Shown piece after piece: positions 4,324 to 32,051 of a DNA stretch of 64,000 nt. The number at the start of each line of letters is the position of its first letter. The first letter of the stretch is position 1. The notes under the pieces were generated by a model. It did no database searches. It was not told the DNA's origin and saw only the letters and a program-made list of their open reading frames with translations. The stretch lies in NCBI GenBank assembly GCA_965652925.1, contig CBFGXL010000003.1:9-64008 (forward strand), read 5' to 3'. This DNA comes from an uncultured bacterium (GTDB lineage Bacteria; Patescibacteriota; Minisyncoccia; Phycocordibacterales; UBA918). The position numbers were made by a program, and so were the translations under genes.

Positions 4324-5547
4324 CTATCGATATTGCGCCAATTCTTCCTTAAGACGGGAGATCTCTTTCTTGAGCTCAATCATTTTCAGTTCACGCTCTA
4401 CCATGAGCTTATTCATTCCCGCCTTTTCTTCGAGGCTCTTGCGCAGGCTCTCATTTGATTCTTTCTCTTTTTGATTGAGCTCCTGCTGTTTCTGAAGTTC
4501 TCGTTCTTCCAACTTCTTGTATTTAGCAAGTTCATCAAACAAATGGTTTATCTGTTCTGCAAGCTTTCCCACATCATCTTTTCCTCCCATATGCACTTCA
4601 GCAAAACTGAGGTTGTCCATCGAAATAGCCCGCATCTCTTTACTTAACTGGGCAAAACGTCGCAAGAGGAGTTTTTCAAGCAGAATCAGTATTGTTCCGC
4701 CAAGTAGCAGGATGGAGACTATTGAGATCAATAAAAATGCGCGTATTGTGTCTTCTCCCTGGGCAGTTATTTCGCGGGGGACATCAATTTTTATGATAAG
4801 TGCAGGTTCACCCATTATGTTGTCGAGCTTAAAATATCCTGCAAGCGTGTCCTTCGAAAGTTTTTGTATAACAGAAGGGGTAACGTCGAGCTGTTGTTGT
4901 GCATATCCAACATCTGCGGGGAGTTCCTGATCTGGGGTAAATGTCTCAATAGATAATTGGGTGACATCCTCAAGCCCTTCCATAAGCTCGTCATCGATAA
5001 ATCTGCCAAATATCAGCGTACCAGCTTTTGGGCCTGAGCCGTCGCTGTATGTAATTGGCTGGGAAACAACAAGCATCGTGCCCTCCTGTAAACTGATGAG
5101 TCCTTGCATCCCTTCTTCGTCCGGAGAAAGAAGGGAGGGGTAACTTAAGATCTGTTGCGTGATTGATGAGGATGGAACATTCACTTCTTCTGCAAGATCA
5201 ACCAGAGTTGAGAAGACAACCTCATTGTTATTGTTGATAAAGGCCATCAGATTGATCTGCAAATTTATCAGTGTTTCATCCGAAAGGTTGGATTCAATGT
5301 ATTCAGTATTGCCGTCGCCTATAAATTGATATGTATCATCCCATTGTGCCCAGTCTGCGAGTTTTATCTGCAGTGAAACTAATTTTTCGTCGAACGAACT
5401 GTGTACTCGGGTAAGGTTCTGCTCCATCTGCGCAGTTTCAATTTTCTCAAAGCTTTTAAGAAGCACGACTTGTGAGATGGTATATATCACCCCTGCAAGA
5501 AGGAGGACACTGGTAATAATTACAGCAATGATTTTAAGTCTGATCAT
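4324..5547 (-). CDS. Kinase-less membrane signal transducer: large extracytoplasmic domain, TM, HAMP, coiled coil, conserved C-terminal RELKMIELKK helix
   Basis: N-terminal TM helix, an extracytoplasmic domain of about 250 aa, a second TM helix, a HAMP-like segment (LLRRFAQLSKEMRAISMDNLSFAEV..GKDDVGKLAEQINHLFDELA), then coiled coil ending MVERELKMIELKKEISRLKEELAQYR. No HisKA or HATPase domain. Confidence 0.65.
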   Translation of the reverse strand: MIRLKIIAVIITSVLLLAGVIYTISQVVLLKSFEKIETAQMEQNLTRVHSSFDEKLVSLQIKLADWAQWDDTYQFIGDGNTEYIESNLSDETLINLQINLMAFINNNNEVVFSTLVDLAEEVNVPSSSITQQILSYPSLLSPDEEGMQGLISLQEGTMLVVSQPITYSDGSGPKAGTLIFGRFIDDELMEGLEDVTQLSIETFTPDQELPADVGYAQQQLDVTPSVIQKLSKDTLAGYFKLDNIMGEPALIIKIDVPREITAQGEDTIRAFLLISIVSILLLGGTILILLEKLLLRRFAQLSKEMRAISMDNLSFAEVHMGGKDDVGKLAEQINHLFDELAKYKKLEERELQKQQELNQKEKESNESLRKSLEEKAGMNKLMVERELKMIELKKEISRLKEELAQYR

Positions 5548-5667
5548 GGTATACGTACATTCTATAATGGATGAGATAAGAAGTTCTGGAGTGTCAGTGT
5601 GTATAGTGACAGTCCTTTGTTATGGTGCGCGTGTGATAATGAGTGAAAGCTAAGTTTAATTAAAATT

Positions 5668-6714
5668 ATGAAATGGATATTGGGTTTAATCGCTGTGCTG
5701 TTAGTGGCAGGAGGTGTTGCCACATACGTACTTTTGTTCCTACAGCCTTCTGATCAAGGTTTGACACAGATAGCGGATGAGGACCGGCTTGTAATAGGCC
5801 TTTCGATGGGGACACTTCGCTCTGAGCGCTGGGTACAAGACCGGGATCATTTTGTTGCTCGCGCCGAAGAATTGGGTGCAGAGGTGATTGTTTTTTCAGC
5901 TAATGAGGATCCAGAAGAACAGAACAGGCAGGCTGAAAATCTTATTCTCCAAGGCGTTGATGTGCTCGTAGTTGTTGCAGAAGACTCACAGAAAGCCTCT
6001 GTAATAGTAGATTACGCACATGCAGCTGGTATTAAAGTTATTGCATATGACCGACTGATCCAAAATCCGTCTCTTGATTACTATGTCACCTTTGACAACG
6101 TCAAGGTGGGCGAATACCAGGCACAGAAAGTCTTGGACGTGGTGCCGGAAGGAGATTTTGCCTATGTGGGTGGATCTCCAACTGACAACAATGCATATCT
6201 GGTGAAGGAGGGTAGTATGAACGTATTACAGCCACTGATCGACGAAGGGAAGGTCAACCTTGTCTTTGACGAGTTTAGTGATGACTGGAAGCAGGAAATT
6301 GCATATCAGAATATAAAAGAATTTCTCACTGAAGGTGGAAGCGTTGACGCGGTTATCGCCGCAAATGATTCTACGGCAGCGGGAGTCATACAGGCTTTGG
6401 AAGAGGCGGATCTTGCAGGAAAAGTTCCCGTGTCGGGACAAGATGCAGCGCTTGGTGCAGTACAGAATATCGTAGCGGGGAAACAGACAGTCAGCATTTA
6501 CAAGCCGATTAAGGAACTTGCCTATAAGGCTGCCGAAATCGCAGTTGCTGTTGTTAAGGAGGAGCCATTTATGGTGAATTATCATACTGAAAATGGCGAT
6601 TCAACCACTCCATCTTTCCTACTGGATGTAGTTCCGGTGACAAAGGACAATATCGATGAAACCGTCATCAAAGATGGTTTCCACAAGCGAGAAGAAGTTT
6701 ACTTTGGACAATAG
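5668..6714 (+). CDS. Membrane-anchored periplasmic-binding-protein fold I (sugar-binding-type) substrate-binding protein
   Basis: N-terminal TM or signal anchor; type I periplasmic binding protein fold resembling ribose/xylose-binding proteins (VIGLSMGTL..RW, VDVLVVVAED, GIKVIAYDR). No ABC permease or ATPase gene nearby; it sits immediately upstream of the HAMP transducer. Confidence 0.7.
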   Translation: MKWILGLIAVLLVAGGVATYVLLFLQPSDQGLTQIADEDRLVIGLSMGTLRSERWVQDRDHFVARAEELGAEVIVFSANEDPEEQNRQAENLILQGVDVLVVVAEDSQKASVIVDYAHAAGIKVIAYDRLIQNPSLDYYVTFDNVKVGEYQAQKVLDVVPEGDFAYVGGSPTDNNAYLVKEGSMNVLQPLIDEGKVNLVFDEFSDDWKQEIAYQNIKEFLTEGGSVDAVIAANDSTAAGVIQALEEADLAGKVPVSGQDAALGAVQNIVAGKQTVSIYKPIKELAYKAAEIAVAVVKEEPFMVNYHTENGDSTTPSFLLDVVPVTKDNIDETVIKDGFHKREEVYFGQ

Positions 6715-6720
6715 AACTGT

Positions 6721-7671
6721 ATGAGCATACGACAGAAAATATTCCTTTCTTCTGTTGTTGTTGTATTCCTGATGTTTATTGCTCTTGCCAGCTTCTTTTT
6801 TTTCCACCGTGTAGCCATTGTCGAATATAAGACCATATCCGAGAATCTCATTCTTGAAAATGAATTGGCACAAAAAGTAAATGTACTTGTTGAATCATAC
6901 AATGCCATTGTTATTGCCCCATCAAGTCAGGAGAGGAAGGAGACCTATAAGGCCAATTACGAAGATATAGCTCGTATCATACGCACGCTTGATGAGGCAG
7001 TTGAAAGTGAAGACAGTAAAGTTGCGTATGCTGGGCTCAGACGCATTGTGCTCCTTCTTCTTGAGGATTGTCAAAATGGTATAACCGCACTTGAAAGTGG
7101 TGACACGACAGTTGCGCTCGAATATTACAATGATGCGCAGCACAAGCTTGGCTTCGTCCTTTCAAATACCACCTCGTTTTTGCTCACCGAGATACAGCAC
7201 CTGCATGAGGTGCAAGAGAGGATAGAGAAGCGTTACAGCCAACAGCTGTGGGCAACAGCTTTGTGGACACTCCTTTTGGTCTTTGGTGCTGTTTTGTATG
7301 CACTTATCTTTGCTCGCAGGATCACTTCACCGGTTAATATGCTCTCACATATTTCTGCAAAAGTTTCTGAAGGCAACTTCAATCAGCAAATTCCACAAGA
7401 ACTTCTCAGCCGTTCTGATGAGGTCGGAGGTTTTGCACGCTCATTTCACGTTATGCTCGAGAAACTTAACCACAAAATTAACCAGGTAGAGACAGCAAAT
7501 GAGACGATCCTCAAAACTCAAGAGGACCTAACAGTGCGTAATCAAGAACTTGAAAAATTCAATCGTATGGTTGTTGGCCGAGAGTTGAAAATGATCGAGC
7601 TTAAAGAACGTATTGCAACACTTGAAGAGAAGCTCAAAGATTGCGATCAGGCGAAGTTAAAAAGCGAATGA
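6721..7671 (+). CDS. Kinase-less membrane signal transducer: periplasmic domain, TM, HAMP, coiled coil, conserved C-terminal RELKMIELKERI helix
   Basis: TM1 (VVVVFLMFIALASFFFF), periplasmic helical domain of about 150 aa, TM2, HAMP (ARRITSPVNMLSHISAKVSEGNFNQQIP..DEVGGFARSFHVMLEKL), coiled coil ending MVVGRELKMIELKERIATLEEKLKD. No kinase domain. Convergent with the downstream histidine kinase, overlapping it by 38 nt. Confidence 0.65.
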   Translation: MSIRQKIFLSSVVVVFLMFIALASFFFFHRVAIVEYKTISENLILENELAQKVNVLVESYNAIVIAPSSQERKETYKANYEDIARIIRTLDEAVESEDSKVAYAGLRRIVLLLLEDCQNGITALESGDTTVALEYYNDAQHKLGFVLSNTTSFLLTEIQHLHEVQERIEKRYSQQLWATALWTLLLVFGAVLYALIFARRITSPVNMLSHISAKVSEGNFNQQIPQELLSRSDEVGGFARSFHVMLEKLNHKINQVETANETILKTQEDLTVRNQELEKFNRMVVGRELKMIELKERIATLEEKLKDCDQAKLKSE

Positions 7672-9676
7672 CAAAAGTGGTGTCGCCGTGTTCATTCTTG
7701 GCTGCGGTGATAGTTCCATTGTGCAGCTCGACGATTTTTTTGCTGATGGCCAATCCGAGACCTGTGCCCTTAATTGAGCTTGTGGTATGCGTCCGATAGA
7801 AACGCTCAAAAATGTGGGGCAGGTCAGTTGTGTCTATACCGAGTCCGTTATCTGTAATTTGAATTTGTATCGCGTCATCTTTCATGGAGAGAGAAAGAGA
7901 AATAAATGGTTTGCTTTTCTTGGGATCGCTGTATTTGACCGCATTGCTCACCAGATTCGTAAGCAGTTCACGAATCTGTGGTACATCGCATGAAAAGAAA
8001 ATATTCCGCTCGATATTTTTTTCAAATGCTATGCCCTGATGCTGTGCCATCACTTCAAAGTATTCAACAAGTTCTTGCAACAAATCACTGAGATTACATT
8101 TTTTCTTCGCTACTATTTTTTCACCCGCATTTTCAAGCTGTGCAAGATGCAAAAGATCGTATACAAATGCAGATATGTCATCAATAGTACGCTCAAATAA
8201 ATTAAATGTGTCATCTTGGGGCAAATGTTTCCGCAACAATGCAAGCTGTGATTTAACCACGGTTAAGGGGCTTTGCAATTTGTGTGAAATATCGAGTAAG
8301 ATTTGCGCCTGATGATCTTGCATGTCGCGTATTTGCTGCGTACGCTGTGCAACGCGCGCCTCAAGGTCTTTCGAATATGCCTGCACTTCGCTATAGAGTC
8401 TCGCTTTTTGGAATGCTGATGCGATCTGGTGCGAAAAGGTCCTGATAAGGACCAAATCCTCATCAGTGTACGGATCGCCTGACTTTTTCGTACCCATGAA
8501 GATCCCGCCAATGGCATTTCCCTCAAAGATAATAGGGACATTGAGTGTGACCCTCTTTTCGTTTTTTGTGTCGTCATTGAACTGATCTAGTTCATTTTCG
8601 TTTACAAACTCGACTCTCACGAGGGTGGTTTTAAGGATCCTTCCAAGGGTTTCTTCAGTGAGTTGTTGAATGTCTTTAAGAAGAACACTCTTATGTATCT
8701 TCTCGCTCAGCTCGTAGAGAGCATCAGCATAGTTGTACGTATCCTTGAAGAAAAACCTGTCAGTTTTTTTGCGCAGATACCGGTCTATGTGCGGGACGGA
8801 GAAAATACCAAGCACAGTGGTGATACCGGCATTTACCATAATTGCCGTAAGAGTCATCTGTTGCAGGAAAAAGCTTGTCAGTGTGATGATCGATAGATAA
8901 AAACTTACGATAAAGGCAAACAGCAGAGAATAAATAATTCCTCGCTGTACTACAATGCGAATATCGAAGAGTTTGTGTTTCAGGATCGCGTATGCGGTTG
9001 TAATTGCTAAGATCACTGAAAATTGTGGCGCGACGTTAAAGAAACGCAATTCACCCAGAAGCGGAAGGATGATCCCAAACGTAACCCCACCAAAAAATAA
9101 AGCGAGGAACCCAATGGTGATATAGAGAGTTTGCAGCTTTCTCTCCCCGGTTGCCTTTTTAAAGAGACGTAGTAGCCGTGATAGAACATACAGCAGTCCG
9201 CCGAAAAGAAAAACGAGATAGAAATAATATTGAACTCCAGGAATGATCTGCGCTGGTTCGCCTTCGGGGAATGCAGTGCCTAATATCGCATAGTCAGAGA
9301 AAGAAAAAATGGCAAACAAGGCACTTGGGAGGGCATAAAAAACAAGGCGCTGAAAAGATGGCAGACGCCCGTCGACGAATGTGTCAACAAATATGAGAAA
9401 GAAGGTAACTATAAATGCGCTTGCAGTAAATGCAATGCCGCTCCATATAATAAGCGGGGTAGGCGACGTTGAGATATCAGCGGCGGCGTTCCCTCCTATC
9501 CATAAAGCATCAGCAAGAATGTAGAGAATGAAGACATGGGTAAGCGGATCTTTTTTACCCTTTACGAAAAGAAAAACTGCAATACCGACCGAAAGGACCG
9601 TCAGTATTGCAGCTGTGTAGGTAAAGAGAAACATATGTCTATATCGTTGAGAAGTCGGAAGCAAGGAAAGCTCCAT
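7634..9676 (-). CDS. Sensor histidine kinase (N-terminal multi-TM sensor domain, GAF-like region, HisKA, HATPase_c)
   Basis: At least 8 predicted TM helices at the N-terminus. H-box ISHKLQSPLT; N box NLVSNAVKYS; G1 DNGLGI; G2 GTGLGLAISKKIV. Confidence 0.85.
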   Translation of the reverse strand: MELSLLPTSQRYRHMFLFTYTAAILTVLSVGIAVFLFVKGKKDPLTHVFILYILADALWIGGNAAADISTSPTPLIIWSGIAFTASAFIVTFFLIFVDTFVDGRLPSFQRLVFYALPSALFAIFSFSDYAILGTAFPEGEPAQIIPGVQYYFYLVFLFGGLLYVLSRLLRLFKKATGERKLQTLYITIGFLALFFGGVTFGIILPLLGELRFFNVAPQFSVILAITTAYAILKHKLFDIRIVVQRGIIYSLLFAFIVSFYLSIITLTSFFLQQMTLTAIMVNAGITTVLGIFSVPHIDRYLRKKTDRFFFKDTYNYADALYELSEKIHKSVLLKDIQQLTEETLGRILKTTLVRVEFVNENELDQFNDDTKNEKRVTLNVPIIFEGNAIGGIFMGTKKSGDPYTDEDLVLIRTFSHQIASAFQKARLYSEVQAYSKDLEARVAQRTQQIRDMQDHQAQILLDISHKLQSPLTVVKSQLALLRKHLPQDDTFNLFERTIDDISAFVYDLLHLAQLENAGEKIVAKKKCNLSDLLQELVEYFEVMAQHQGIAFEKNIERNIFFSCDVPQIRELLTNLVSNAVKYSDPKKSKPFISLSLSMKDDAIQIQITDNGLGIDTTDLPHIFERFYRTHTTSSIKGTGLGLAISKKIVELHNGTITAAKNEHGDTTFVIRFLTSPDRNL

Positions 9677-10364
9677 ACCCTCGGCTTTTCGGATCCTTCA
9701 TCAAGTTGGGGATGACGCATATAAGCCCCGCCCGCAAAGACTCCGTGCTGAACCTCAAAAGAGAGTCCGGCCGGCGGAGCTTCGGCAGATCAAGCACCGG
9801 TTGTGGGGCAGATGCTTCCCATGTTGTTGTCTGGTGGAGGAGTTTCATGCTCTCATGGGCATACCAGAGTGCAATATCCTCTTCTTTGTAGGGAAGTGTG
9901 CCGCCATTCTCTCTCTCAACCGTGCGTAGATAACGGTCGAGATTGACCAACCGCGGAGCTCCGATGAAGTATACCATTTCTCGTTTTTGGAGCAGTATCC
10001 GCAATTCTTTGTTGAGTGCAGCTCCTGCTTCCGATGAACGTTGGACCACATTCACGGCATAGACGGTTTTTGCTGATGGATCATGAGTATGGATACTCCA
10101 CCCATGTCCTGTCTGTGCTTCAGGCGCGGTGTGTTTACTGATCTCATCGAAGGAGAAATGCACTTGAATTGCATAATAGAAGCCGTCGAGGCGCCCTCCT
10201 TTCTCGGCTACGAGGAAAAAGGGAGAATGAACGTCGTACCACTCTTTGAGAGTGGCGTAAGTGAGGATCTCGGTGCCTTCACGTTCCCATCGGGCCTGTT
10301 CGATCTCAACGAGAGTTGGCAAATCTTCTTCTCTGACATTTCGGACTGTGTAGCAGTCGAACAT
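9639..10364 (-). CDS. Hypothetical protein, weak GNAT-acyltransferase-like N-terminal half
   Basis: N-terminus VRNVREEDLPTLVEIE and FFLVAEKGGRLDGFYYAIQV resemble the GNAT beta-strand core, and RSSEAGAAL is a possible motif A. The C-terminal 100 aa are unassigned. Sits in an operon between the decarboxylase and the kinase. Confidence 0.3.
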   Translation of the reverse strand: MFDCYTVRNVREEDLPTLVEIEQARWEREGTEILTYATLKEWYDVHSPFFLVAEKGGRLDGFYYAIQVHFSFDEISKHTAPEAQTGHGWSIHTHDPSAKTVYAVNVVQRSSEAGAALNKELRILLQKREMVYFIGAPRLVNLDRYLRTVERENGGTLPYKEEDIALWYAHESMKLLHQTTTWEASAPQPVLDLPKLRRPDSLLRFSTESLRAGLICVIPNLMKDPKSRGYGAFLASDFSTI

Positions 10365-10404
10365 TGTTTCTTTCTCCTATGTAAGGAACTCGTCTCTGCA
10401 TGCC

Positions 10405-10827
10405 CTAGACGTATGTCCGGGCATTCTTTTGTAGAGATGAGAGTGAGGTGTTGTGAAATCGCTTTCCTCTGATAAGTAGATTCGTTTCAAAAGCTTGGAT
10501 ATTGAATACTTCACTTATGAGTTTTGTGGTTTTTTGAGCGTCGAAGGTTTTGCAGGAATACACATCCGCAGTGACAAACCCCCGTTCTTCATAGGTGTGG
10601 ATACTGATGTGTGATTCCATGATAAAGACGAATCCTGAAAGGCCGCGTATTCCTGGCTCATCAACTTTAATGATGTGAGGGAAACCAACTCTGCGCATAC
10701 CAATGTGCGCCGGGAGTTCCATGAGCAATTTGTACAGATTATCGACGCTCCCGCAGAGTTTTGCATTCGCTGCGTATCCGTCGAGTGTCAGCTGCAGCCC
10801 GTAGGCTGTATTTTTCTCTTTTTCCAT
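10405..10827 (-). CDS. Pyruvoyl-dependent S-adenosylmethionine-decarboxylase-fold proenzyme (SpeH/SpeD class 1-like) with deviant motif
   Basis: Small (about 140 aa) AdoMetDC-like protein with self-cleavage and pyruvoyl-forming motif FIMESHISIHTYEE; the canonical form is ..ESH(L/I)..HTWPE. Start set at the internal ATG (MEKEKN), 1 nt after the stop of the upstream methyltransferase. Confidence 0.7.
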   Translation of the reverse strand: MEKEKNTAYGLQLTLDGYAANAKLCGSVDNLYKLLMELPAHIGMRRVGFPHIIKVDEPGIRGLSGFVFIMESHISIHTYEERGFVTADVYSCKTFDAQKTTKLISEVFNIQAFETNLLIRGKRFHNTSLSSLQKNARTYV

Positions 10828-10828
10828 A

Positions 10829-11572
10829 TTACTTCGTGATGATAGGAGCAACGATCGTGTTGCTCTTCCAATACTGGCAATTCTCAGGGGGAACCACCGG
10901 ACAGATACTGAGGTCGATATGTCTAAACCCAGCCTGCTTCAATTTGTGCATATGTGCATCAGAAAAAGAATCTATCTCATCTGAGTAGTAGGTGAGCACC
11001 CCGCCATCTTTGAGCATGCGGAAGGCTTCTTCAAAGAATGTAAAGTGGTTTTGGTGGATCTCATCCTCGCTTAAGGGGTAGGTGTCAAATAATATCCCTG
11101 AGATGCTTCCGTCAGGGATAACTTTGGCAATGTCCTGCCAGAATCCGTATAGGGGAATAATCGGGTGAGCACTTTCCTGTGCAAAAGTCACGAGAGTATC
11201 GAATACATCATTATTGGCCTCGATAATGTAGTGTGAATCAATAGCGTGCGATTGAATATATTGCGCTGAGATACCCATGCCAAAGCCTACTTCAAGCACT
11301 GTTCCTCCTTGTGAAGCGGCGATTCTCGCGAGCTCTTGCATGTATGGGTCTTCCCAGCGTTCCATAACTGGATGTCCCTGTATCACCAATTCATCTTGCG
11401 TAAGCGTTGCTTTTTCCTGCTTCCACATGTGGTAATCCGATAAGAAACCGATATCACGTCGTGACTGATACGTAACCTCACGTATGTCATCAAATTTTTT
11501 GTTTTGGATCATCTTAAAAAAGTTATTGATTAACTTTTTTAGTCTACAAAACAGAGGATAAACTTCCCTCAA
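10829..11572 (-). CDS. GAMT/Rmt2-family (guanidinoacetate N-methyltransferase-like) SAM-dependent methyltransferase
   Basis: Core closely matches the remembered GAMT sequence: HPVMERWEDPYM, VLEVGFGMGI, IIEANNDVF, IIPLYGFWQD, LPDGSISGILFDTYPLSED, GGVLTYYSD. The true start may be the internal M (MIQNKK). Confidence 0.75.
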   Translation of the reverse strand: MREVYPLFCRLKKLINNFFKMIQNKKFDDIREVTYQSRRDIGFLSDYHMWKQEKATLTQDELVIQGHPVMERWEDPYMQELARIAASQGGTVLEVGFGMGISAQYIQSHAIDSHYIIEANNDVFDTLVTFAQESAHPIIPLYGFWQDIAKVIPDGSISGILFDTYPLSEDEIHQNHFTFFEEAFRMLKDGGVLTYYSDEIDSFSDAHMHKLKQAGFRHIDLSICPVVPPENCQYWKSNTIVAPIITK

Positions 11573-11622
11573 AGAAAAATTAAATTTTATTTCACAAAAA
11601 AATAAACTGTACAGCGTGCAGC

Positions 11623-12294
11623 TTATGAGTGGTCAAATCTATACCCAATCCCCGGTACTGTCTGTATAAGGCGTGCATGGCGTTCTGAATCAAGCTTTCG
11701 GCGGAGTGTCATGATATGCGTTTCTATTGTGTTTGAAAAAGGATCGGCGTTCATGTCCCATACATGCTCCAGTATCATGCCGCGTGAAAGAACCGTGCCG
11801 CGATTTCTCATGAGATACTCAAGGAGTAGGAATTCTTTGCGTGTGAGATATACCTCTTGTCCATTTTTCTTCACAATATGTCGTTTGCAGTCGAGTTCAA
11901 GATCTCCAATTTCAAGAATGTCTGACTGGAGTTCTTTCGGGCGGCGCAAGAGTGCTCGAATGCGCGCAAGAAGCTCTTCAAATGAAAACGGTTTTGTGAG
12001 GTAATCGTCAGCACCGGCATTGAGGAATCCTATCTTATTTACGGTTTCTGATTTAACAGAAAGTCCAATTATCGGCGTTTTAATGTTGCGTGTTCTGAGT
12101 TCTTTGCATATATCAAGTCCTGTATTGCGAGGCAACATGAAGTCTAGAATGATCACGTCGTAATCATTGGTCGTACCCAAATATACTCCTTCTTCACCAT
12201 CAAATGTTGTGTCGACAACAAAATATTCTGATTCCAAACTGATCTTCAGAAATTCATTAATTTTTGGGTCGTCTTCAACTACAAGGATGCGCAT
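11623..12294 (-). CDS. OmpR/PhoB-family response regulator (REC plus winged-helix DNA-binding domain)
   Basis: REC domain MRILVVEDDP..D..ILDFMLP..GL..K..PIIGLS; Trans_reg_C region LTRKEFLLLEYLMRN.G.VLSR..I...VW with ending GIGYRF. First gene of the minus-strand operon. Confidence 0.9.
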   Translation of the reverse strand: MRILVVEDDPKINEFLKISLESEYFVVDTTFDGEEGVYLGTTNDYDVIILDFMLPRNTGLDICKELRTRNIKTPIIGLSVKSETVNKIGFLNAGADDYLTKPFSFEELLARIRALLRRPKELQSDILEIGDLELDCKRHIVKKNGQEVYLTRKEFLLLEYLMRNRGTVLSRGMILEHVWDMNADPFSNTIETHIMTLRRKLDSERHARLIQTVPGIGYRFDHS

Positions 12295-12482
12295 ATGAGC
12301 TACAGGGACAGTGGTATTGAGAATATATCTTTTTAGTACAAATACTTGATAAATATTTTATCTTAAATTTGCAATCATGTATATGCAAGTTCATTAGCAT
12401 ACAGATGAGTTTACTTATCTACTGCACAAGATATGTATACGCACTGTGCTCAAGATATACTGAAGATATCTGAGGTGTGTGA

Positions 12483-13658
12483 ATGATCTCTGCAATCAGT
12501 AATTTATATATTGTTATGCATATTGAGCAGAAACTTTGGACACAGCGCGATGGATGGCAAAGCAAAAGTGAGCCTCTCCAGCACACCCCACAGCTCGTGT
12601 TTGTATTTGGCGGCAGAGCAGAGGTCCAAAAGCAGGAGTATTTTGCTGAGATAAAAAAAATGTATCCCGACTCGAACATTCTCACCTGTTCTACTTCGGG
12701 TGAAATTCTGGGAACACGTGTCTATGACCACTCTTTGTGCGTTACTGCAATTCACTTTGAAAAAACAAAAGTGTCGTTTGCTCAGACAACTATTGCAAGT
12801 ACTGATGAAAGTGAAGCGAAGGGGAAGATACTTGCTGAATCTCTACCGCATGACGATCTCGCTCATGTGCTGGTCTTTTCTGATGGGCTTATAGTAAATG
12901 GCACTGCGTTAGTTGATGGTCTGACAGCTGCACTGCCAAGCACTATTTCTGTTACTGGCGGGTTGGTGGGGGATGGAGCTGATTTTAAACATACTGTTGC
13001 GGGGCTCAATGAAGCTCCCAAGGAAAATAACATTATTCTCATTGGATTGTATGGAACCGACATTAACGTTGGGTACGGATCGCTCGGAGGATGGGATACC
13101 TTCGGTCCCGATCGAACTATTACTCGTTCAAAAGGAAATGTGCTCTATGAGCTCGATGAACAACCTGCGCTTGAGCTTTACAAGGAATATTTAGGTGAAC
13201 TTGCTTCAGAGCTTCCTGGGTCAGGACTCTTGTTCCCGATGCGATTGCAGTACATTTCTAAAAATGGAGAAGTCGAGGTGGTTCGTACGCTTTTGGGTAT
13301 AAATGAAGAAGATCAAAGCATGACTTTTGCCGGTGATATGCCGGAGGGGGTTACAGCTACCCTTATGCGGGCAAACTTCGAACGATTAGTTGATGGAGCA
13401 CAAGGGGCAGCGAAGATGAGTATTGAAAACAGTGGAAAAGAGGTTGAATTCGCTTTACTTATCAGTTGTGTGGGAAGGAAGCTGGTTCTTAAAGAACGAA
13501 TTGAAGAGGAGACTGAAGCAGTCCAGTCGGTTGTCGGGGAAAAAACAGTGATGGCAGGATTCTATTCGTATGGAGAGATCTGCCCTATTGCACCAACAGA
13601 AAAACAATGCCGTTTGCACAATCAGACCATGACCATAACAACGTTGAGCGAAAAGTAA
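12483..13658 (+). CDS. FIST-domain sensor protein (FIST_N plus FIST_C)
   Basis: Pattern LVFVFGG...ILTCSTSGEI and GGLVGDG..F.HT..G matches the FIST N/C architecture of cytoplasmic small-ligand sensors. First gene of the plus-strand signalling operon. Confidence 0.65.
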   Translation: MISAISNLYIVMHIEQKLWTQRDGWQSKSEPLQHTPQLVFVFGGRAEVQKQEYFAEIKKMYPDSNILTCSTSGEILGTRVYDHSLCVTAIHFEKTKVSFAQTTIASTDESEAKGKILAESLPHDDLAHVLVFSDGLIVNGTALVDGLTAALPSTISVTGGLVGDGADFKHTVAGLNEAPKENNIILIGLYGTDINVGYGSLGGWDTFGPDRTITRSKGNVLYELDEQPALELYKEYLGELASELPGSGLLFPMRLQYISKNGEVEVVRTLLGINEEDQSMTFAGDMPEGVTATLMRANFERLVDGAQGAAKMSIENSGKEVEFALLISCVGRKLVLKERIEEETEAVQSVVGEKTVMAGFYSYGEICPIAPTEKQCRLHNQTMTITTLSEK

Positions 13659-13659
13659 C

Positions 13660-14322
13660 ATGCATAGGACCCTGGTTCGACAACTCGATAAGTATGCTGA
13701 CCTCACTCCAGAGAGTGTTGTGTCTCCATGGAAAGAGTTGCTGTCTGCGGTCAGTACTACCTATGATGATTTTGACCGGGATAAACAGCTTATTGAGCGT
13801 TCGCTTGAAATAAGCTCACACGAACTGCGTCGCCTCATTTCCACACTGCAGGCGACACTTGATGCCACCAATGAAGGTATTCTTGTTATGGATGACAAAG
13901 GAAGGATGGCTAATCACAATAAAAGATTTACAGAGATTTGGAGCATCCCTGATGACATCATGAACACCCATGATGCAACAAAGGCACTTGAGTATGCTAT
14001 GCAGCTTGTACTCAATCCGGTGCCGTTCCGCGAGAGTGTGGAAGAAGCACTGAATAAAAACGATAAAGAGACTGTGTATGTTGTACACTTTAAGGATGGG
14101 AGAGTAATAGAACTTCGATCCAAGCCACACTTTCTTGACGGGGAGAGTGCGGGTACGATCTGGAGTTCTCGTGACATCACCCAGAGTGTTAAGGCTGAAG
14201 AAGATCTGAAAGCAAAGCTCGCAGCTCTTGAATTACTTAACAAGTCGATGGTTGATCGAGAGTTAAAGATGATTGAGCTCAAGAAGAAGATCGCAGAATT
14301 GTCGAAGGACAATACCTTATGA
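13660..14322 (+). CDS. Kinase-less cytoplasmic PAS-domain transducer with conserved C-terminal RELKMIELKKKI helix
   Basis: PAS-like core (LDATNEGILVMDDKGRMANHNKRFTEIWSIP...) then coiled coil ending MVDRELKMIELKKKIAELSKDNTL. The stop overlaps the start of the downstream kinase by 4 nt (ATGA). Confidence 0.65.
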   Translation: MHRTLVRQLDKYADLTPESVVSPWKELLSAVSTTYDDFDRDKQLIERSLEISSHELRRLISTLQATLDATNEGILVMDDKGRMANHNKRFTEIWSIPDDIMNTHDATKALEYAMQLVLNPVPFRESVEEALNKNDKETVYVVHFKDGRVIELRSKPHFLDGESAGTIWSSRDITQSVKAEEDLKAKLAALELLNKSMVDRELKMIELKKKIAELSKDNTL

Positions 14323-16469
14323 AAAAAAGCGAACGTTTTACATACGGAATACAACTGAAGTTTATCCTCTTCAGGTTGTTTAATACTCTCATTATCATCC
14401 TGCTTGGAGCATTCTGTATCTACATGATCACAGATGCAGGGAAGAGTTCTTCGAGTGTTGTGGAGAACAGATTGCCAAAGCTCGATGCCGTCCAAGAAAT
14501 ATACTCAGCTGTTTTCTCTTCAGGTCTATATGGTGCTGCTGTACTTAATGATCAGGACAGACTCGGTGGAGAAGATCAGTACACGCGTGAGCTTGAGGAA
14601 AGTTTCAAGAGGGCACATCTATATTTAGACGCGCTCATCTATGGCACAGAGACCGAAACATTTGAAAAATTGCACGGACGGGATATGAATGATCTGGGTA
14701 TTGAATCACTCAGTATAGTAAATCCTTCAGAAGAGCTGGTTGAATCTGTGACAGAAGTGAAGATGGAAGTCGAAAAATTCGAAGAGTCACTGCGCACTGC
14801 AATAACTGCTCGTGAGGCTTCTACGGCGGATGCGTCAGAGGCAACTACGAGTGCTCTGCTGCAGCAGGATACCTACGAATTGCAACGTGTTGCCTTTACC
14901 TCACATACCGACAGCATCGCTCAGGCTCTCGATGAAGTGCAGACCTTGCTTGATACGCAGATTAATACAGGGATCGAACAAGTAAATGAAAACAATAAAA
15001 CCAGGGTAGTTCTTGTTTTTCTTGTCGTGCTATTGGCAGCAACTGTAGCGCTCTTTGGAGGGCTTTTATTCTCTAACCATGTAATACTCGGACCGTTACG
15101 CTCACTCACACAAACAGCAGAGGAGATGGCTGAAGGGAAACTTTCACGCCGAGTGAAAATCACATCCAAGGATGAAATTGGAAAACTTGGTTATACATTC
15201 AATAAACTCGCAAGCAGACTTCAGTCATCGTATGACGATCTGGAGAAGATAGTTAAAGATAAGACCGATGCTCTCTCTTCGGTACTTCAGCAGTTTGAAT
15301 CGAAAAATGACGACCTTGAAAAGTCGCAGATGGCAACCATCAACCTTTTGGAAGATCTTGAGGAGGAGAAACGTGCTGTTGAGCAAAGAGTCAAGGACAG
15401 AACTGAAGAGCTTGAGCGTGAAAAAAATAAACTTCTCCAAGTGACGAGCAACATGAAAGGAGGAGGTATCCTTCTTGATAAGGAAGGCAATGTTGTATTC
15501 ACTAATGAAGCAACATTTAAAATGCTCGACATAAAAGAGGGAGTAAGTTCCAAAGAGATTCTTGAGCATTTTCTTTCTTACTTTGATGAGTCTTCTATCC
15601 GACAGTACTTCAAGCGATGCATCGCGGGGGAAACTTTTCATGTGGAAGAGATCAGCGGCCATGGCAGGGTGTACGAGATGTTCTTCCATTATTTGAAGAA
15701 TGATGAAGTGAAAGGATCAGAAGGCTACTTTATCTTGTTCTTCGATATAACTGACGCGAAGCTCCTCGAACGCTCAAAAAGCGAACTGGTTGCTGTTGCA
15801 TCACATCAGTTACGTACACCACTTACCGCTATGCGCGGAAACGTAGAAATGCTTATTGACGAAAGTTTTGGAAAGCTTAACAAAGAACAGCATGAGCTTC
15901 TTGATGATGTTGAGGTTTCGACCATACGTCTCATTACTATGGTCAATGAGATGCTTGATATAACAAAGATAGAAAAAGGTGATCTGGAGATGCAGATTGA
16001 GGAACTTAACCTCAAAGAGATTGTCGACTCTGTCATTGATGACCTTAGTTCTTATGCGAAACGGCACGAGTTCGACATTGACCGGAGCGATCTTTCTGCC
16101 AACGTCATGATTGCAGGAGACAAAGTGCGAGTACGGCAGATCTTCCAGAACCTTATTGATAACGCCATCAAATACAGCAATCATCCCGGTCTGCTCCGCA
16201 TATCAACCAATGTACAATCTGATATGGTTGAGATCGTTTTCAAAGACAATGGCATTGGTGTTCCTAAAAATGAACAGCCGAAGCTCTTTGAACGATTTTA
16301 TCGGGCTTCAAACACGGCAAAGACTGCAAGTAGCGGTTCAGGTTTAGGACTCTATATTGTAAAATCAATTGCACGACAGCTTGGTGGAGACATCCGTTTC
16401 GAATCTGAAGAGGGAATAGGGACAACCTTCTTTGTTACCTTGCCATTGTTTGCTAAACATAAAGCATAG
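14319..16469 (+). CDS. Sensor histidine kinase (TM, periplasmic domain, TM, HAMP, coiled coil, PAS, HisKA, HATPase_c)
   Basis: HAMP PLRSLTQTAEEMAEGKLSRRVKITSKDEIGKLGYTFNKLA; H-box VASHQLRTPLTAMRG; N box NLIDNAIKYS; G boxes DNGIGV and GSGLGLYIVKSI. Confidence 0.9.
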   Translation: MKKSERFTYGIQLKFILFRLFNTLIIILLGAFCIYMITDAGKSSSSVVENRLPKLDAVQEIYSAVFSSGLYGAAVLNDQDRLGGEDQYTRELEESFKRAHLYLDALIYGTETETFEKLHGRDMNDLGIESLSIVNPSEELVESVTEVKMEVEKFEESLRTAITAREASTADASEATTSALLQQDTYELQRVAFTSHTDSIAQALDEVQTLLDTQINTGIEQVNENNKTRVVLVFLVVLLAATVALFGGLLFSNHVILGPLRSLTQTAEEMAEGKLSRRVKITSKDEIGKLGYTFNKLASRLQSSYDDLEKIVKDKTDALSSVLQQFESKNDDLEKSQMATINLLEDLEEEKRAVEQRVKDRTEELEREKNKLLQVTSNMKGGGILLDKEGNVVFTNEATFKMLDIKEGVSSKEILEHFLSYFDESSIRQYFKRCIAGETFHVEEISGHGRVYEMFFHYLKNDEVKGSEGYFILFFDITDAKLLERSKSELVAVASHQLRTPLTAMRGNVEMLIDESFGKLNKEQHELLDDVEVSTIRLITMVNEMLDITKIEKGDLEMQIEELNLKEIVDSVIDDLSSYAKRHEFDIDRSDLSANVMIAGDKVRVRQIFQNLIDNAIKYSNHPGLLRISTNVQSDMVEIVFKDNGIGVPKNEQPKLFERFYRASNTAKTASSGSGLGLYIVKSIARQLGGDIRFESEEGIGTTFFVTLPLFAKHKA

Positions 16470-16473
16470 TTGT

Positions 16474-16899
16474 ATGGAAAAAATCACAGAATCAAAGCCA
16501 TTGAAAGACAGGAAGATACTCATCGTTGAGGATGATCATTTTATTTCACGAATCTATGAAAAATGGCTCACTGCTGCTGGAGCTCATATTCTGATTGCGC
16601 ACGATGGTGTGCAAGGGCTGCGTACGCTTGACGAAGAAGAGGTCGATCTTGTGCTTCTTGATCTCGGTATGCCTGGACTTGATGGCTACCAGACGCTGCT
16701 GCAACTGCGCGAGCGTCCGAAGTTGAAGGAATTGCCAGTTATTATTCTCAGTAATACGACCATGAATGAGAATCGTGATGGCTTTGCAGATATAAAAAGG
16801 GCAGGGGTTAAGGATGTGCTCCGCAAATATGAGATATCGCTTACCGAGATAGTGAACTGTATCAGCGCATATTTCCCTAAAGAGTTAAAAACCCAATAA
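16474..16899 (+). CDS. Single-domain response regulator receiver (CheY-like)
   Basis: KILIVEDD..D, LVLLDLGMPGLDG and a conserved Lys region. No output domain. Start set at ATG (MEKITESK) just after the kinase stop. Confidence 0.85.
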   Translation: MEKITESKPLKDRKILIVEDDHFISRIYEKWLTAAGAHILIAHDGVQGLRTLDEEEVDLVLLDLGMPGLDGYQTLLQLRERPKLKELPVIILSNTTMNENRDGFADIKRAGVKDVLRKYEISLTEIVNCISAYFPKELKTQ

Positions 16900-16908
16900 A
16901 TTTATTCT

Positions 16909-17301
16909 ATGAGTACACCACACAAAATATTATTGGGGGAAGATGAAGAGTTTGTTGCTCGTTCTTACATCCGGAAACTCCAGGTAGAGGGCTATGAAGT
17001 TGTGCACGCGCACAATGGAGAAGAGGCCCTTAAACTTATGGAGGTTGAGAAACCGGACCTAGTTATACTTGATCTCATGATGCCGGTGAAAACTGGGTTT
17101 GAGGTTCTGCAAGAAATAAAATCAGGAACAAATGAAGCGCTGAAAAAGCTGCCGATTATTGTAGCATCTAATCTTGGTCAGAAAACAGATATTGATACCG
17201 CACGTTCGCTCGGTGCAATTGATTTCCTCATTAAATCAAACATATCGCTGAAGGAGCTTGTGGCAAAAGTGCAGGAGCATCTACCTGCGCAAAAAAAGTA
17301 G
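16909..17301 (+). CDS. Single-domain response regulator receiver (CheY-like), second copy
   Basis: KILLGEDEEF, LVILDLMMPVKTG, PIIVASNLG. No output domain. Immediately upstream of pilB. Confidence 0.85.
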   Translation: MSTPHKILLGEDEEFVARSYIRKLQVEGYEVVHAHNGEEALKLMEVEKPDLVILDLMMPVKTGFEVLQEIKSGTNEALKKLPIIVASNLGQKTDIDTARSLGAIDFLIKSNISLKELVAKVQEHLPAQKK

Positions 17302-18989: not shown

Positions 18990-20039
18990 ATGCTCGGTTC
19001 AATTTCTATTCAGCATCGCGTCGATTTTGCCAAAAACTTGGCAATTATGCTTCGTAGCGGTATAGCCATCAATGATGCGCTTACTTCATTGGGAGAGCAG
19101 AGTGAATCTTCGCGCCTGCGCAGGATTATTTTTAAGGTTCGTGACGATATCGAAAATGGGACATCGCTGTCTGCCGCCTTCGCGAAGGAGGTGCATGTTT
19201 TTGGGCAGATATTTGTCAGTATGATCAAAGCCGGAGAGCAGAGCGGTACGCTGCAAGGGAATCTGCAATTCCTCTCAGACTGGCTTTCACGGAGTGCAGA
19301 TCTCAAACGTGAGGTTTCAGCAGCGACACTGTATCCAAAAATGGTCTTTGGCGCGTCGGTTGTCCTTGGTGGGGGGCTTGCGGTATTCATACTTCCCATG
19401 CTTGTGCCACTGTTTACCGGTCTTGATGTGGAGCTTCCACTGCTTACACGAGTATTGCTTGCCTTGTCTTTGTTTGTGCAGGAATACTGGTTCTGGTGCA
19501 TTGTCGGCACAATTGCCGCGATCGCTGCGCTCATTTACAGCAATACCTTTGCGCCGGTGAAATTCCTCTTTCATCTTTTATATATTCGTATGCCGTTCCT
19601 TGGGAAACTCATGCGCCAGTATCAGCTCGCACTTATCACACAGTTGTTTGCAACACTGCTCAAAAGTGGCTTATCGCTCAATGAGTCTGTTGAGATCGTC
19701 TCTCAAGCAGCAACGAATGTGCATTATCAAAATGCGCTCCGTGAGGTCAAGTCTGCAACTGAAAAAGGGACGACGTTGTCAGAGACCATGCGTGACTTCC
19801 CACAGATGTTTCCGGTGATCGCTGTTAATATCATTGCCATTGGCGAAAAAAGTGGAACGCTATCGAATTCACTCGATTATCTTTCGGATTTTTATACCAA
19901 AGAGGTGAATGTGCAGGCACGCAAACTGCCGACCATCATTGAGCCGCTGTTGCTTATTTTTATTGCGGTTATCGTCGGTTTTGTTGCGCTTGCGATCATC
20001 ATGCCAATCTATGAGCTTACCGGAAATATCTCACGTTAA
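18990..20039 (+). CDS. pilC: Type IV pilus inner-membrane platform protein PilC/GspF
   Basis: Two T2SSF-like repeats with conserved segments (AIMLRSGIAINDAL, ATLLKSGLSLNESV) and three TM regions. Confidence 0.85.
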   Translation: MLGSISIQHRVDFAKNLAIMLRSGIAINDALTSLGEQSESSRLRRIIFKVRDDIENGTSLSAAFAKEVHVFGQIFVSMIKAGEQSGTLQGNLQFLSDWLSRSADLKREVSAATLYPKMVFGASVVLGGGLAVFILPMLVPLFTGLDVELPLLTRVLLALSLFVQEYWFWCIVGTIAAIAALIYSNTFAPVKFLFHLLYIRMPFLGKLMRQYQLALITQLFATLLKSGLSLNESVEIVSQAATNVHYQNALREVKSATEKGTTLSETMRDFPQMFPVIAVNIIAIGEKSGTLSNSLDYLSDFYTKEVNVQARKLPTIIEPLLLIFIAVIVGFVALAIIMPIYELTGNISR

Positions 20040-30037: not shown

Positions 30038-30709
30038 ATGAAAAAACACACATGGAAGATCGTCTTTGTTGTTGCGGCGTTACTCATGGGAGCTTCATTC
30101 TTCTATGCGAACTATGCGAGCAATAAAGCAAATGAAGGGGTTGTTATCAAAGAGTATACAAAAGGGAATGAGAACGCCGCTGTCACCCTTACGGAATATG
30201 CTGACTTTCAGTGTCCGGCATGCGGTCAGTTTTATCCGATCATGAAAGAAGTTGAAACGCAGTATGGAGATAAGATCAAGATCGAATTCAAGCATTTTCC
30301 GCTCGTGACCATTCATCCGTTTGCTATGCCTGCGGCCAAAGCTGCTGAGGCGGCAGGACAACAGGGCAAATTCTTTGAGATGCATGATAAGTTGTTTGAG
30401 AATCAGAGTACCTGGTCGCGATCATCAGCTCCACAGGCATATTTTATCCAATATGCTGAGGAACTAGGTCTCGATATTGACCGTTTCAAGACCCACATGA
30501 AGTCCTCGCTTTTACAGGACCGTATTGAAGAGCAGTTTTATGAAGCTCAAGAGCTTGGCCTGACTGGGACACCCTCTTTCTATCTCAATGGGGAGAGGCT
30601 TGAATTTCAGACATTTGAGGAATTTTTTGGTGCGCTTGATGCGGCTCTCGGTTTGACACCTGCTACAGCAACAACAAGTCCACAGAACCAGGTGGAGTTT
30701 GGCATCTAA
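30038..30709 (+). CDS. DsbA-family thiol:disulfide oxidoreductase
   Basis: N-terminal TM anchor; thioredoxin fold with CPAC active site (YADFQCPACGQFYP); DsbA-like helical insertion. Confidence 0.8.
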   Translation: MKKHTWKIVFVVAALLMGASFFYANYASNKANEGVVIKEYTKGNENAAVTLTEYADFQCPACGQFYPIMKEVETQYGDKIKIEFKHFPLVTIHPFAMPAAKAAEAAGQQGKFFEMHDKLFENQSTWSRSSAPQAYFIQYAEELGLDIDRFKTHMKSSLLQDRIEEQFYEAQELGLTGTPSFYLNGERLEFQTFEEFFGALDAALGLTPATATTSPQNQVEFGI

Positions 30710-32051
30710 GCACGTAATGAGTACATCCATCGATTCGGATTGGTACCGGCAGCTTGCACCTTTGAGCATAGAAGTTCTGCGGTACCTTAAGAGTGACCTT
30801 CAGGGATTGCAACAGCAGAAAGATTCCTTTTTTGCCGGCGAGTCTCGTGTGCCATTTTTCAACTATGCACATATAGAGATCGAACAGATCAAAGAGAAGG
30901 TCCTAGGCTTGCAGCGCTTGCGCGAGCGAATTATTGCACAGGAGGAGCTTGCTGTGGTTGCCGAACTCTATACGGCGAAGATCGATGAATATCTTGCGAA
31001 TGCACTATTGTTGCAGTCTTCTTATGATGCTTCGGTTGCACCGCATCGTGCGGCTGCTGCGATGGCTGATTTTAAAAAGGTGAACACGTATCTGTACGGG
31101 GAAATAAATCCAGATATGTTCAACCTCACCCTCCGTACGCTTCGTAGAAAACTTCAAAAAGTTCCGCAAGAGTTAAAGACCCAGCATCCAGAGGCGGCAG
31201 AGCGTCTTGAATATTTGGTGCGCGAGCTTCCTTCTGAAGGCGACTCCTACGTGTTTGCGATAGAGAAACACCCAGTTGAACAGACAGAGATTATTAAAGA
31301 CATTGTTGAGATAACAGATATGTTCCAGAAGGCGCTTCTGGAACGAGGGCTGGCGGATAGGTGGAAGGTCAGGGTAGACACCACAGGACAGTTGCATACA
31401 TTTTCAGTGATCAATCACGAGCAGGTTATCGCAATTCCTGGACAGCAGTTCTTTTTGGAAATGCATGAAGGATATTCACTTGCAAAACTCAATGGCTTGA
31501 TTGCGCATGAGATTGATACACATATAATCCGCAGACATAATGGGAGAAGATCCCAGCTCCGTTTGCTCGGAGCAGGCCTCGATCGCTATCACAGAGGTGA
31601 GGAGGGTATTGCTACGTATCGGGCTCAGAGAGAGAAAGGATCCCGTTCATTTGCTGGTTTCTTGGGCTATCTTTCACTCGGGCTGGCGCTTGGAATGGAA
31701 CCACACGGCCAGCCGAAAGATTTTGCAGGACTCTATGAGATTCTCTACGCGTATTTTTTATTGGTAGGTCGGTTTGAAGAACAGATGGCGCATCAGCGTG
31801 CATGGCACGCCTGCTGGAGGGTTTTTAGAGGAACTACATGTTCTGAAAAAGGAGTTGTATTCATGCGCGATGCCACATACAGACAAGGCAATATTCTCAT
31901 TCATCAGTTGCTCCATACGTATCCTCAAGCGGAAGCTGATTTTGATGTGGGGAACTTTGATCCGACGCAAAAATCGCATATCAGTGCGCTGCTAAAACTC
32001 GGTTTGCTTCCTGAGCATCCGTGGAAAGCAATCGCTGCGGATACAGTTTAA
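30699..32051 (+). CDS. Hypothetical protein, possibly DUF1704 (QEGLA-motif) family
   Basis: HEIDTHIIRRHNG and GEEGIATYRAQ resemble the HExxxH and QEGLA-like signatures of DUF1704 proteins. Weak assignment. Confidence 0.35.
   Translation: MASKHVMSTSIDSDWYRQLAPLSIEVLRYLKSDLQGLQQQKDSFFAGESRVPFFNYAHIEIEQIKEKVLGLQRLRERIIAQEELAVVAELYTAKIDEYLANALLLQSSYDASVAPHRAAAAMADFKKVNTYLYGEINPDMFNLTLRTLRRKLQKVPQELKTQHPEAAERLEYLVRELPSEGDSYVFAIEKHPVEQTEIIKDIVEITDMFQKALLERGLADRWKVRVDTTGQLHTFSVINHEQVIAIPGQQFFLEMHEGYSLAKLNGLIAHEIDTHIIRRHNGRRSQLRLLGAGLDRYHRGEEGIATYRAQREKGSRSFAGFLGYLSLGLALGMEPHGQPKDFAGLYEILYAYFLLVGRFEEQMAHQRAWHACWRVFRGTTCSEKGVVFMRDATYRQGNILIHQLLHTYPQAEADFDVGNFDPTQKSHISALLKLGLLPEHPWKAIAADTV

Follow-up and report, generated by a model that had tools for sequence, protein, structure and literature searches.

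A conserved C-terminal helix of output-less sensor proteins and its genetic link to a coiled-coil motif of histidine kinases

Why do three otherwise dissimilar sensor proteins, none of which has an output domain, end in almost the same peptide? The proteins are encoded in a 64,000-nucleotide stretch of DNA from an uncultured bacterium of the Patescibacteriota (GenBank assembly GCA_965652925.1, contig CBFGXL010000003.1, positions 9 to 64,008), referred to here as the window. An initial annotation had suggested that the peptide is a docking helix by which detached sensor modules reach partner kinases or another target. Here we describe the peptide, termed motif A, show that it is genetically linked to a second motif, termed motif B, in kinases encoded downstream, and weigh the proposal that A docks on B.

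Motif A as a C-terminal hallmark of output-less sensors

The three proteins and their copies of motif A are listed below (TM, transmembrane segment; aa, amino acids; bit scores are those of a local hidden Markov model, HMM).

4324..5547, minus strand: TM-CHASE4-TM-HAMP-A protein, 407 aa; Pfam CHASE4 at residues 52-201 and HAMP at 292-340
6721..7671, plus strand: TM-sensor-TM-HAMP-A protein, 316 aa; two TM segments, Pfam HAMP at 197-250
13660..14322, plus strand: PAS-A protein, 220 aa; N-terminal helical module, PAS_7 at 67-181 (also PAS_4), long C-terminal helix
4336..4434, minus strand: motif A copy 1 (..AGMNKLMVERELKMIELKKEISRLKEELAQ), 51 bits; regular-expression match 4369..4404
7537..7638, plus strand: motif A copy 2 (..ELEKFNRMVVGRELKMIELKERIATLEEKL), 58 bits; regular-expression match 7567..7605
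14215..14313, plus strand: motif A copy 3 (KLAALELLNKSMVDRELKMIELKKKIAELSKDN), 53 bits; regular-expression match 14248..14283

A six-frame scan of the window with the regular expression M[IVL]x(1,2)RE[LIVM][KR]M[IVLA]ELK gave exactly three matches, at the coordinates of the initial annotation; the probability of one such match by chance is about 1e-7 per window. The open reading frames (ORFs) and their coordinates were confirmed. The nonapeptide RELKMIELK is identical in all three copies, 9-23 residues before the protein end. The corresponding DNA copies (CGTGAACTGAAAATGATTGAGCTCAAG, CGAGAGTTGAAAATGATCGAGCTTAAA and CGAGAGTTAAAGATGATTGAGCTCAAG) differ at synonymous sites; conservation is therefore at the protein level, as had been claimed, and a DNA repeat or recombination site was ruled out on the same ground. 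Searches with Pfam detected only input domains in the three proteins, and no HisKA, HATPase_c or other output domain, in agreement with the annotation. The stops of the three genes are genuine. Each exact full-length protein was recorded on 21-25 contigs, and the same gene structure around them recurs in independent samples. Orthologues of the PAS-A protein (40-56% identity) all end at 217-231 aa, and in them motif A is the best conserved segment, above the PAS core, while the tail beyond the motif is variable.

A first profile, built from the three tails, matched proteins of 90 aa or fewer only. The matches numbered in the hundreds, fragments among them, belonged to ANME-2 archaea, Berkelbacteria, Patescibacteria, Bacteroidetes and Actinomycetota, and gave the consensus ELE(R/K)FN(K/R)Lx VGRELKMIELKKEI xxL. 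Statements on position made here rest on an exhaustive search and on genomic ORFs. For the former, a 57-sequence profile was run with HMMER against 1.84 billion representatives, and 13,963 bacterial and archaeal clusters (50% identity) were matched at E<=1e-3, 570 of them at E<=1e-10. Among the best 150 of the 13,963 clusters (40-1221 aa), motif A almost always lay within about 45 residues of the C-terminus; most of the exceptions had a second copy or an extended tail past the motif. For the latter, genomes were scanned, one per species, and more than 600 RELKMIEL stretches were found, from which 80 loci were kept. These came from bacteria (candidate phyla radiation (CPR)/Patescibacteria, Proteobacteria, Omnitrophota, Nitrospirota, Bacteroidota, Ignavibacteria, Planctomycetes, Chloroflexota and Spirochaetes) and archaea (DPANN, Methanobacteriota and Thermoplasmata). 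In all 88 occurrences in the 80 loci the motif, with the consensus ELERFNxLxVGRELKMIELKKEI, lay 9-34 residues before the stop, in proteins of about 100-1715 aa. The carriers (n = 79) had PAS (46), HAMP (20), dCache (17), GAF (7), REC (4), seven-transmembrane (7TM; 3) and CHASE4 (2) domains, and only one of the 79 had HATPase_c. Motif A is thus the C-terminal hallmark of a large family of output-less sensors. Nor is it a ubiquitous feature of unrelated coiled coils, an outcome that the initial annotation had named as counting against it: local HMM scores were bimodal, with 117 matches at 26 bits or above and all others at 8 bits or below.

Motif A is covered by no Pfam or NCBIfam model, its profile gave no match above chance to PDB chains, and no account of it was found in the literature, which was searched both for motif strings and for the concept; a paper on Beggiatoaceae TAACTGA repeats proved irrelevant. 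Many A proteins, mainly archaeal and proteobacterial (P0008, P0014, P0047 and P0085 among them), carry an extra tail, LG.EP(R/K)Y.I(V), 10-15 residues past the helix; the window copies do not have it, though copy 1 ends in ..LAQYR.

The PAS-A protein was modelled with AlphaFold2 (AF2) on a 20-sequence orthologue alignment. The model (predicted local distance difference test score, pLDDT, 84) starts with a pair of helices, followed by a PAS core and a continuous 46-residue helix (residues 174-219) that projects from the PAS core, with pLDDT above 90 across motif A. In a Foldseek search, the nearest solved folds were PAS cores with projecting helices, including PpSB1-LOV, PpSB2-LOV, PF5-LOV, YtvA and FixL PAS dimers. 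Residues 1-60 of the same protein (13660..13840) form a conserved module, MHKTL.RQ...W.ELL.AVS.TY..FD.DR.LIERSLEISS.EL, which is also present in orthologues P0285-P0304, with 16 residues invariant at 40-56% identity. AF2 placed helices at residues 3-13 and 22-67 of the protein. The module has no Pfam match; in the window it is encoded beside a FIST gene, and it may be a FIST-contact region.

Motif B and its linkage to motif A

Motif B was recognised by inspecting the kinases encoded downstream of A genes. Its consensus is (Q/R/K)xAxLN(I/L/M)(L/M)ED(L/V/A/F), with the core QRAxLN[ILM][LM]ED, and it lies in the coiled coil leading into the kinase core of the downstream gene. No named family for it was found in Pfam, NCBIfam or a PDB sequence search. 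The window holds one motif B only, in the kinase that follows the PAS-A gene.

14319..16469, plus strand: histidine kinase with motif B, 716 aa; TM, extracytoplasmic region, TM, HAMP, coiled coil with B, PAS, HisKA, HATPase_c
15303..15398, plus strand: motif B, the proposed socket (KSQMATINLLEDLEEEK), 31 bits with the local HMM; core ATINLLEDL at 15333..15359, between HAMP and PAS

The ATG of this kinase gene overlaps the stop of the PAS-A gene (TTATGA). Such tight linkage was common: 55 of 80 A carriers had a same-strand downstream gene within 60 nucleotides, often with the 4-nucleotide ATGA overlap seen in the window. HisKA kinases made up 25 of these 55 tightly linked downstream genes, compared with 4 of 35 tightly linked upstream genes. 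The initial annotation had proposed to look for recurrence of the peptide at C-termini next to kinases; such recurrence was found, with Pfam HisKA in 29 of 76 downstream neighbours. The non-kinase neighbours included solute-binding proteins, FIST and CheR, the first two of which also adjoin A genes in the window. Motif B itself was found in 18/80 downstream proteins, 1/64 upstream proteins and 0/80 A proteins. Scanning of the loci with the local HMMs revealed a simple grammar, in which one to six A-ending genes are followed by one B-bearing protein on the same strand; no opposite-strand match to A or B was found in the loci scanned. Where at least 3 kb of DNA was available past the A gene, 42 of 68 A-fetched loci had a downstream B, on the strand of A.

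A CheR-type methyltransferase is encoded directly after some A genes (2/76 downstream neighbours; for example 6113..6961 of locus L016). In Bacillus cereus RsbK/RsbM, a CheR-like enzyme reportedly methylates a signalling helix, and the Glu-rich B segment could be a substrate of CheR-like methylation.

For a reciprocal test, 120 metagenome loci were retrieved by means of a degenerate DNA pattern that specified B only (A-[TIM]-L-N-I-L-E-D-hydrophobic). Genuine B was present in 97 of the 120, and 70 of these 97 had an upstream A on the same strand, a proportion that was 26/32 for genuine-B loci with at least 3 kb of upstream DNA. No opposite-strand A was found in any of the 97 loci. The 23 spurious pattern matches served as a control and yielded one A in total. 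These data show that A genes come before B genes in the direction of a shared strand, and that B stands at the entry of kinase cores.

In the commonest layout, the A helix is followed by 1-14 residues and a stop, and a new gene then starts with B units that lead directly into DHp-CA. These kinases consist of one to seven tandem 21-residue B units at the N-terminus and DHp-CA only, and the A gene ends 60-250 nucleotides upstream. Kinases with two to seven such repeats were seen in L080 (6120..7688), L198 (2714..3895), L121, L075, L076 and L078. From B onward, 77 of 84 B carriers have HisKA and HATPase_c; the others are two HisKA_2/HWE kinases, one HD-GYP protein, one GGDEF protein and three B-PAS-A adaptors. 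Many B kinases have no sensor of their own, and the A protein encoded just upstream is their only candidate input. Taken together, A and B are very probably functionally linked.

Rarely, the two motifs also occur in single chains. Protein P0153 reads PAS, A, a 26-residue Pro/Gly linker, B, PAS, PAS, A. In P0159, a HAMP domain and A are followed by a 180-residue intervening region, which by eye appears PocR-like, a weak B-like segment below the HMM threshold, and then A. In a 7TM-PAS protein of locus L149, B continues straight into A. Proteins with B before a PAS domain and A at the C-terminus are encoded by two genes in L145 and in L196; such B-PAS-A and B-A proteins could be chainable adaptor modules.

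Proposed docking of A on B and its alternatives

The linkage bears out the genetic side of the docking helix postulated initially; for its physical side, we infer that A binds B directly. On balance we favour the reading that A is a C-terminal plug that docks on a B socket, so that a sensor kinase is split over two proteins. Each of the three window proteins would then supply the sensor part of a sensor kinase whose parts are separate chains. Motif A, as a helix of about 35 residues, would prolong the output coiled coil of the sensor and bind motif B, an acidic helical unit of about 21 residues in the input coiled coil of the kinase; the resulting hetero-oligomeric helical bundle would pass movement of the sensor helices to the DHp-CA core. 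Several further genes of the window enter into this proposal.

7634..9676, minus strand: kinase without motif B, 7TM-GAF-HisKA-HATPase_c
12483..13658, plus strand: FIST_N/FIST_C protein (Pfam), first gene of the FIST/PAS-A/kinase operon; ends 1 nucleotide before the PAS-A start
5668..6714, plus strand: periplasmic binding protein (Peripla_BP_4, Pfam), 6 nucleotides upstream of 6721..7671
16432..16899 and 16909..17301, plus strand: two single-domain response regulators; the type IV pilus cluster is next

The operon runs in the order FIST (12483), PAS-A (13660), B kinase (14319), receivers (16432 and 16909), then pilus genes. In this setting the PAS-A protein, translationally coupled to the kinase and with the FIST gene upstream, would be the dedicated partner of kinase 14319..16469: possibly under FIST control, it would dock via A on the B segment that lies between HAMP and PAS in the kinase, and would modulate autophosphorylation. 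FIST is probably an input partner; it adjoins an A gene also in locus L033. The same single B site would also serve the CHASE4-HAMP-A and TM-HAMP-A proteins, whose genes are 6.6 and 9.8 kb away; copies 1 and 2 would then act on the same kinase as PAS-A, and three inputs would converge on it, competitively or in combination. The periplasmic binding protein is likely the ligand-binding partner of the TM-HAMP-A protein, and solute-binding proteins adjoin A genes in loci L012, L024 and L065 too. The two receivers are likely the phospho-acceptors of the B kinase, and continuation of the operon into the pilus cluster suggests that the system controls pilus function; phosphorylation of these receivers by the kinase would probably provide that control.

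Two of the three A proteins had been described as immediate neighbours of a full histidine kinase. This stands for kinase 14319..16469, but the kinase at 7634..9676 is encoded on the opposite strand, convergent with 6721..7671, the 3' ends overlapping by 38 nucleotides (7634..7671). As it has no motif B, it is probably not the partner of the A protein.

Properties of the two segments are in keeping with a pairing. Net charge is +2.9 for A and -1.7 for B (profiles of 113 A and 114 B segments), and a heptad register assigned by hand gives a normal a/d seam in both. In this register, the invariant residues of A (V13, R15, E16, L17, I20 and K23) and of B (A12, L14, N15, I16, E18 and D19) would face outward or flank the seam. 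R15, E16, L17 and K23 of A and A12, N15, E18 and D19 of B would point away from the dimer seam of their own helix, as would be expected of a partner-binding surface, each homodimeric coiled coil presenting a further face to a partner helix. A four-helix A2B2 bundle is plausible, and the 26-residue linker of the P0153 fusion would allow a hairpin or a HAMP-like parallel arrangement.

Several observations weigh against docking of A on B. About one-third of the A loci have no B in the available DNA. In the window, two of the three A proteins are not encoded next to the B kinase, and that kinase has one B unit for three A proteins. Covariation between A and B over 62 non-redundant operon pairs was 0.284, compared with 0.288 for an A-versus-DHp control; a value at control level fits a generic plug and socket, and lends no positive support. 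AF2 of P0153 residues 415-770 from the single sequence gave a pLDDT of 43, at which only the helix-loop-helix secondary structure is usable. Finally, B is found within sensor proteins as well, preceding a PAS domain, and might be a linker feature of one PAS/kinase lineage instead of a socket.

The strongest alternative, which we regard as unlikely, is that A is a mere homodimerisation or capping helix of free-standing sensors and B an unrelated linker feature of the same kinase lineage, the sensors acting on the co-operonic kinase by other surfaces (e.g. PAS-PAS contacts) or on other targets. Likeness of the C-terminal half of A to canonical dimeric coiled-coil heptads, seen as weak PDB matches to the designed CC-Di and K-coil peptides, is consistent with this explanation, as are the lack of covariation and the occurrence of B inside sensors. 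Plain dimerisation, however, has no need of R, E, K and G residues that are near-invariant from DPANN archaea to Proteobacteria. It also leaves unexplained the strict order of A then B, the reciprocal enrichment, and the sensor-less tandem-B kinases encoded right after A genes.

It is also conceivable, but improbable, that the shared target of A is not the kinase but, for instance, a receiver domain, the pilus ATPase or some other conserved protein. The window operon does run on into two receivers and a type IV pilus cluster, and two of the three A proteins there lie away from the B kinase. Over 200 loci in all, however, the recurrent neighbour is the B kinase and not pilus genes, the remaining neighbours (solute-binding proteins, FIST and CheR) are on the input side, and the A family occurs in lineages that have such pili as well as in others that lack them. 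No observation favours the pilus motor, which the initial annotation had offered as a target.

We consider it very improbable that A is a degenerate first helix of DHp, with VSHELRTPL altered to VGRELKMIEL and His to Arg, that acts as a heterodimerising decoy. VGRELKM does superficially resemble VSHELRTP, and the proteins end roughly where a DHp domain could start, although the earlier statement that each stops where DHp would begin holds only loosely. Against this, hhalign comparison of the A profile with an alignment of 25 neighbouring DHp domains gave a probability of 0.2%, and the aligned stretch was not the H-box; the Pfam HisKA model (PF00512) had no match on 57 A tails at E<=10; and, when the two consensus strings are compared by eye, the conserved Phe stands one residue further from the REL/HEL triplet in A than in the H-box. 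The position of the phospho-accepting His is an invariant Arg in A, and the proteins end 9-34 residues past A, with no DHp hairpin followed by HATPase_c. Assignment of A to HAMP (PF00672) was likewise rejected; the HAMP domains lie upstream, at 292-340 and 197-250, and none was found on the A tails.

Truncation of three kinase genes by frameshift, assembly error or pseudogenisation, which the presence of kinase 14319..16469 next in another frame might suggest, is refuted by the recurrence of identical full-length proteins on 21-25 contigs from several samples, by stops kept in the 40-56% identity orthologues and in 88/88 distant homologues, and by the completeness of the downstream kinase, which has N-terminal TM, sensor and HAMP regions of its own; the out-of-frame kinase remnant that the initial annotation had named as a refutation was not found.

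Docking of A on B may be more general. We suggest, tentatively, that A and B form a universal and largely promiscuous plug-and-socket for separately encoded parts of sensor kinases, especially in small-genome CPR bacteria and DPANN archaea. One to six tandem A sensors would converge on one kinase with one to seven B sockets, and B-PAS-A adaptors would permit daisy-chaining. Such a non-covalent assembly line for signal integration would have no parallel among the two-component systems described.

If A docks on B, about 14,000 clusters of 'orphan' PAS, HAMP and Cache proteins, currently annotated as hypothetical or 'PAS domain-containing', would gain a function, and many sensor-less kinases would gain an input. 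The sensor-transmitter junction, normally a covalent coiled coil, could then be a non-covalent interface, which would bear on how coiled-coil linkers transmit signals and would account for the integration of several stimuli by one kinase. Signalling wiring could also be predicted better from metagenomes with the motif pair, and the short conserved helices may serve in engineering, to attach new sensors to kinases.

Comparison with known systems and remaining genes of the window

The closest functional analogue of A and B, by analogy of arrangement, is the docking-domain pair of modular polyketide synthases (PKS) and, as COM domains, of nonribosomal peptide synthetases (NRPS). There, a short helix at the C-terminus of one chain pairs with a coiled coil at the N-terminus of the chain that the following gene encodes, so that a multi-module protein can consist of several chains in a set order. 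Gene order, terminal positions and chainable middle modules (B-PAS-A) are alike. The cargo there is a tethered intermediate, whereas between A and B it would be a conformational signal, passed by a putative pairing; no PKS/NRPS docking family of Pfam was among the matches to the 57 A tails at E<=10.

Judged from the model, short LOV proteins (PpSB1-LOV, PpSB2-LOV, PF5-LOV and the YtvA LOV core) are the closest structural analogue of the PAS-A protein. Like it, they have a PAS core, an N-cap helix and a J-alpha-type helix and lack an effector; among the A proteins of the window, this effector-less architecture was found for PAS-A only (AF2, Foldseek). LOV domains carry a flavin-binding cysteine motif, NCRFL (GxNCRFLQ). 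At the equivalent strand PAS-A reads NHNKRF, with no Cys, and no solved short LOV protein carries A (PDB profile search).

The C-terminal NWETF pentapeptide of chemoreceptors tethers CheR and CheB, and resembles A as a conserved C-terminal peptide of a sensory protein that recruits a partner. NWETF is unstructured and binds a globular enzyme, whereas A forms a helix of 35 residues that would pair with a second helix.

One kinase function is reportedly spread over two associating polypeptides in Hik36/Hik43 of Synechocystis. CheA3/CheA4 of Rhodobacter sphaeroides is a split kinase in which the phospho-acceptor part is apart from the catalytic part (PMC3591291). It resembles A-B in that kinase function is shared by two associating polypeptides; the cut there is between phospho-acceptor and catalytic parts, whereas here it would be between sensor and transmitter, with HisKA and HATPase_c kept together.

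The closest named motif is the S-helix, a conserved coiled-coil segment of multi-domain signalling proteins with an ERT signature (Anantharaman, Balaji and Aravind 2006, PMC1592074). Both the S-helix and A are conserved coiled coils on the output side of HAMP, PAS or GAF sensors. The S-helix, of about 40 residues, lies between sensor and output domains, whereas A is terminal in 88/88 cases, and the paper makes no mention of stand-alone or extreme C-terminal forms. The A and B profiles have no ERT; their signatures are GRELKMIELK and LNILED. S-helix-like RTxEL units often border the two motifs, on the upstream side of A and on the downstream side of B, but do not lie within them. As judged by sequence, none of the compared families' defining features is present; the arrangement described here is that of a two-component sensor kinase with an apparently non-covalent sensor-transmitter junction, marked by two unnamed, very widespread motifs.

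Beyond the receivers, the type IV pilus cluster extends to 23474, with PilB at 17307, PilC/T2SSF at 18990, an N-methyl pilin at 20467 and PilM at 22119. On the minus strand, two ORFs with no Pfam match, 9639..10364 and 10829..11572 (within 9639..11572), sit between an OmpR-type regulator (11623..12294) and the 7TM-GAF kinase. Elsewhere in the window, ORF 30699..32051 matched the Pfam family MATCAP (microtubule-associated tyrosine carboxypeptidase; E=1.4e-14), a family unexpected in prokaryotic DNA.

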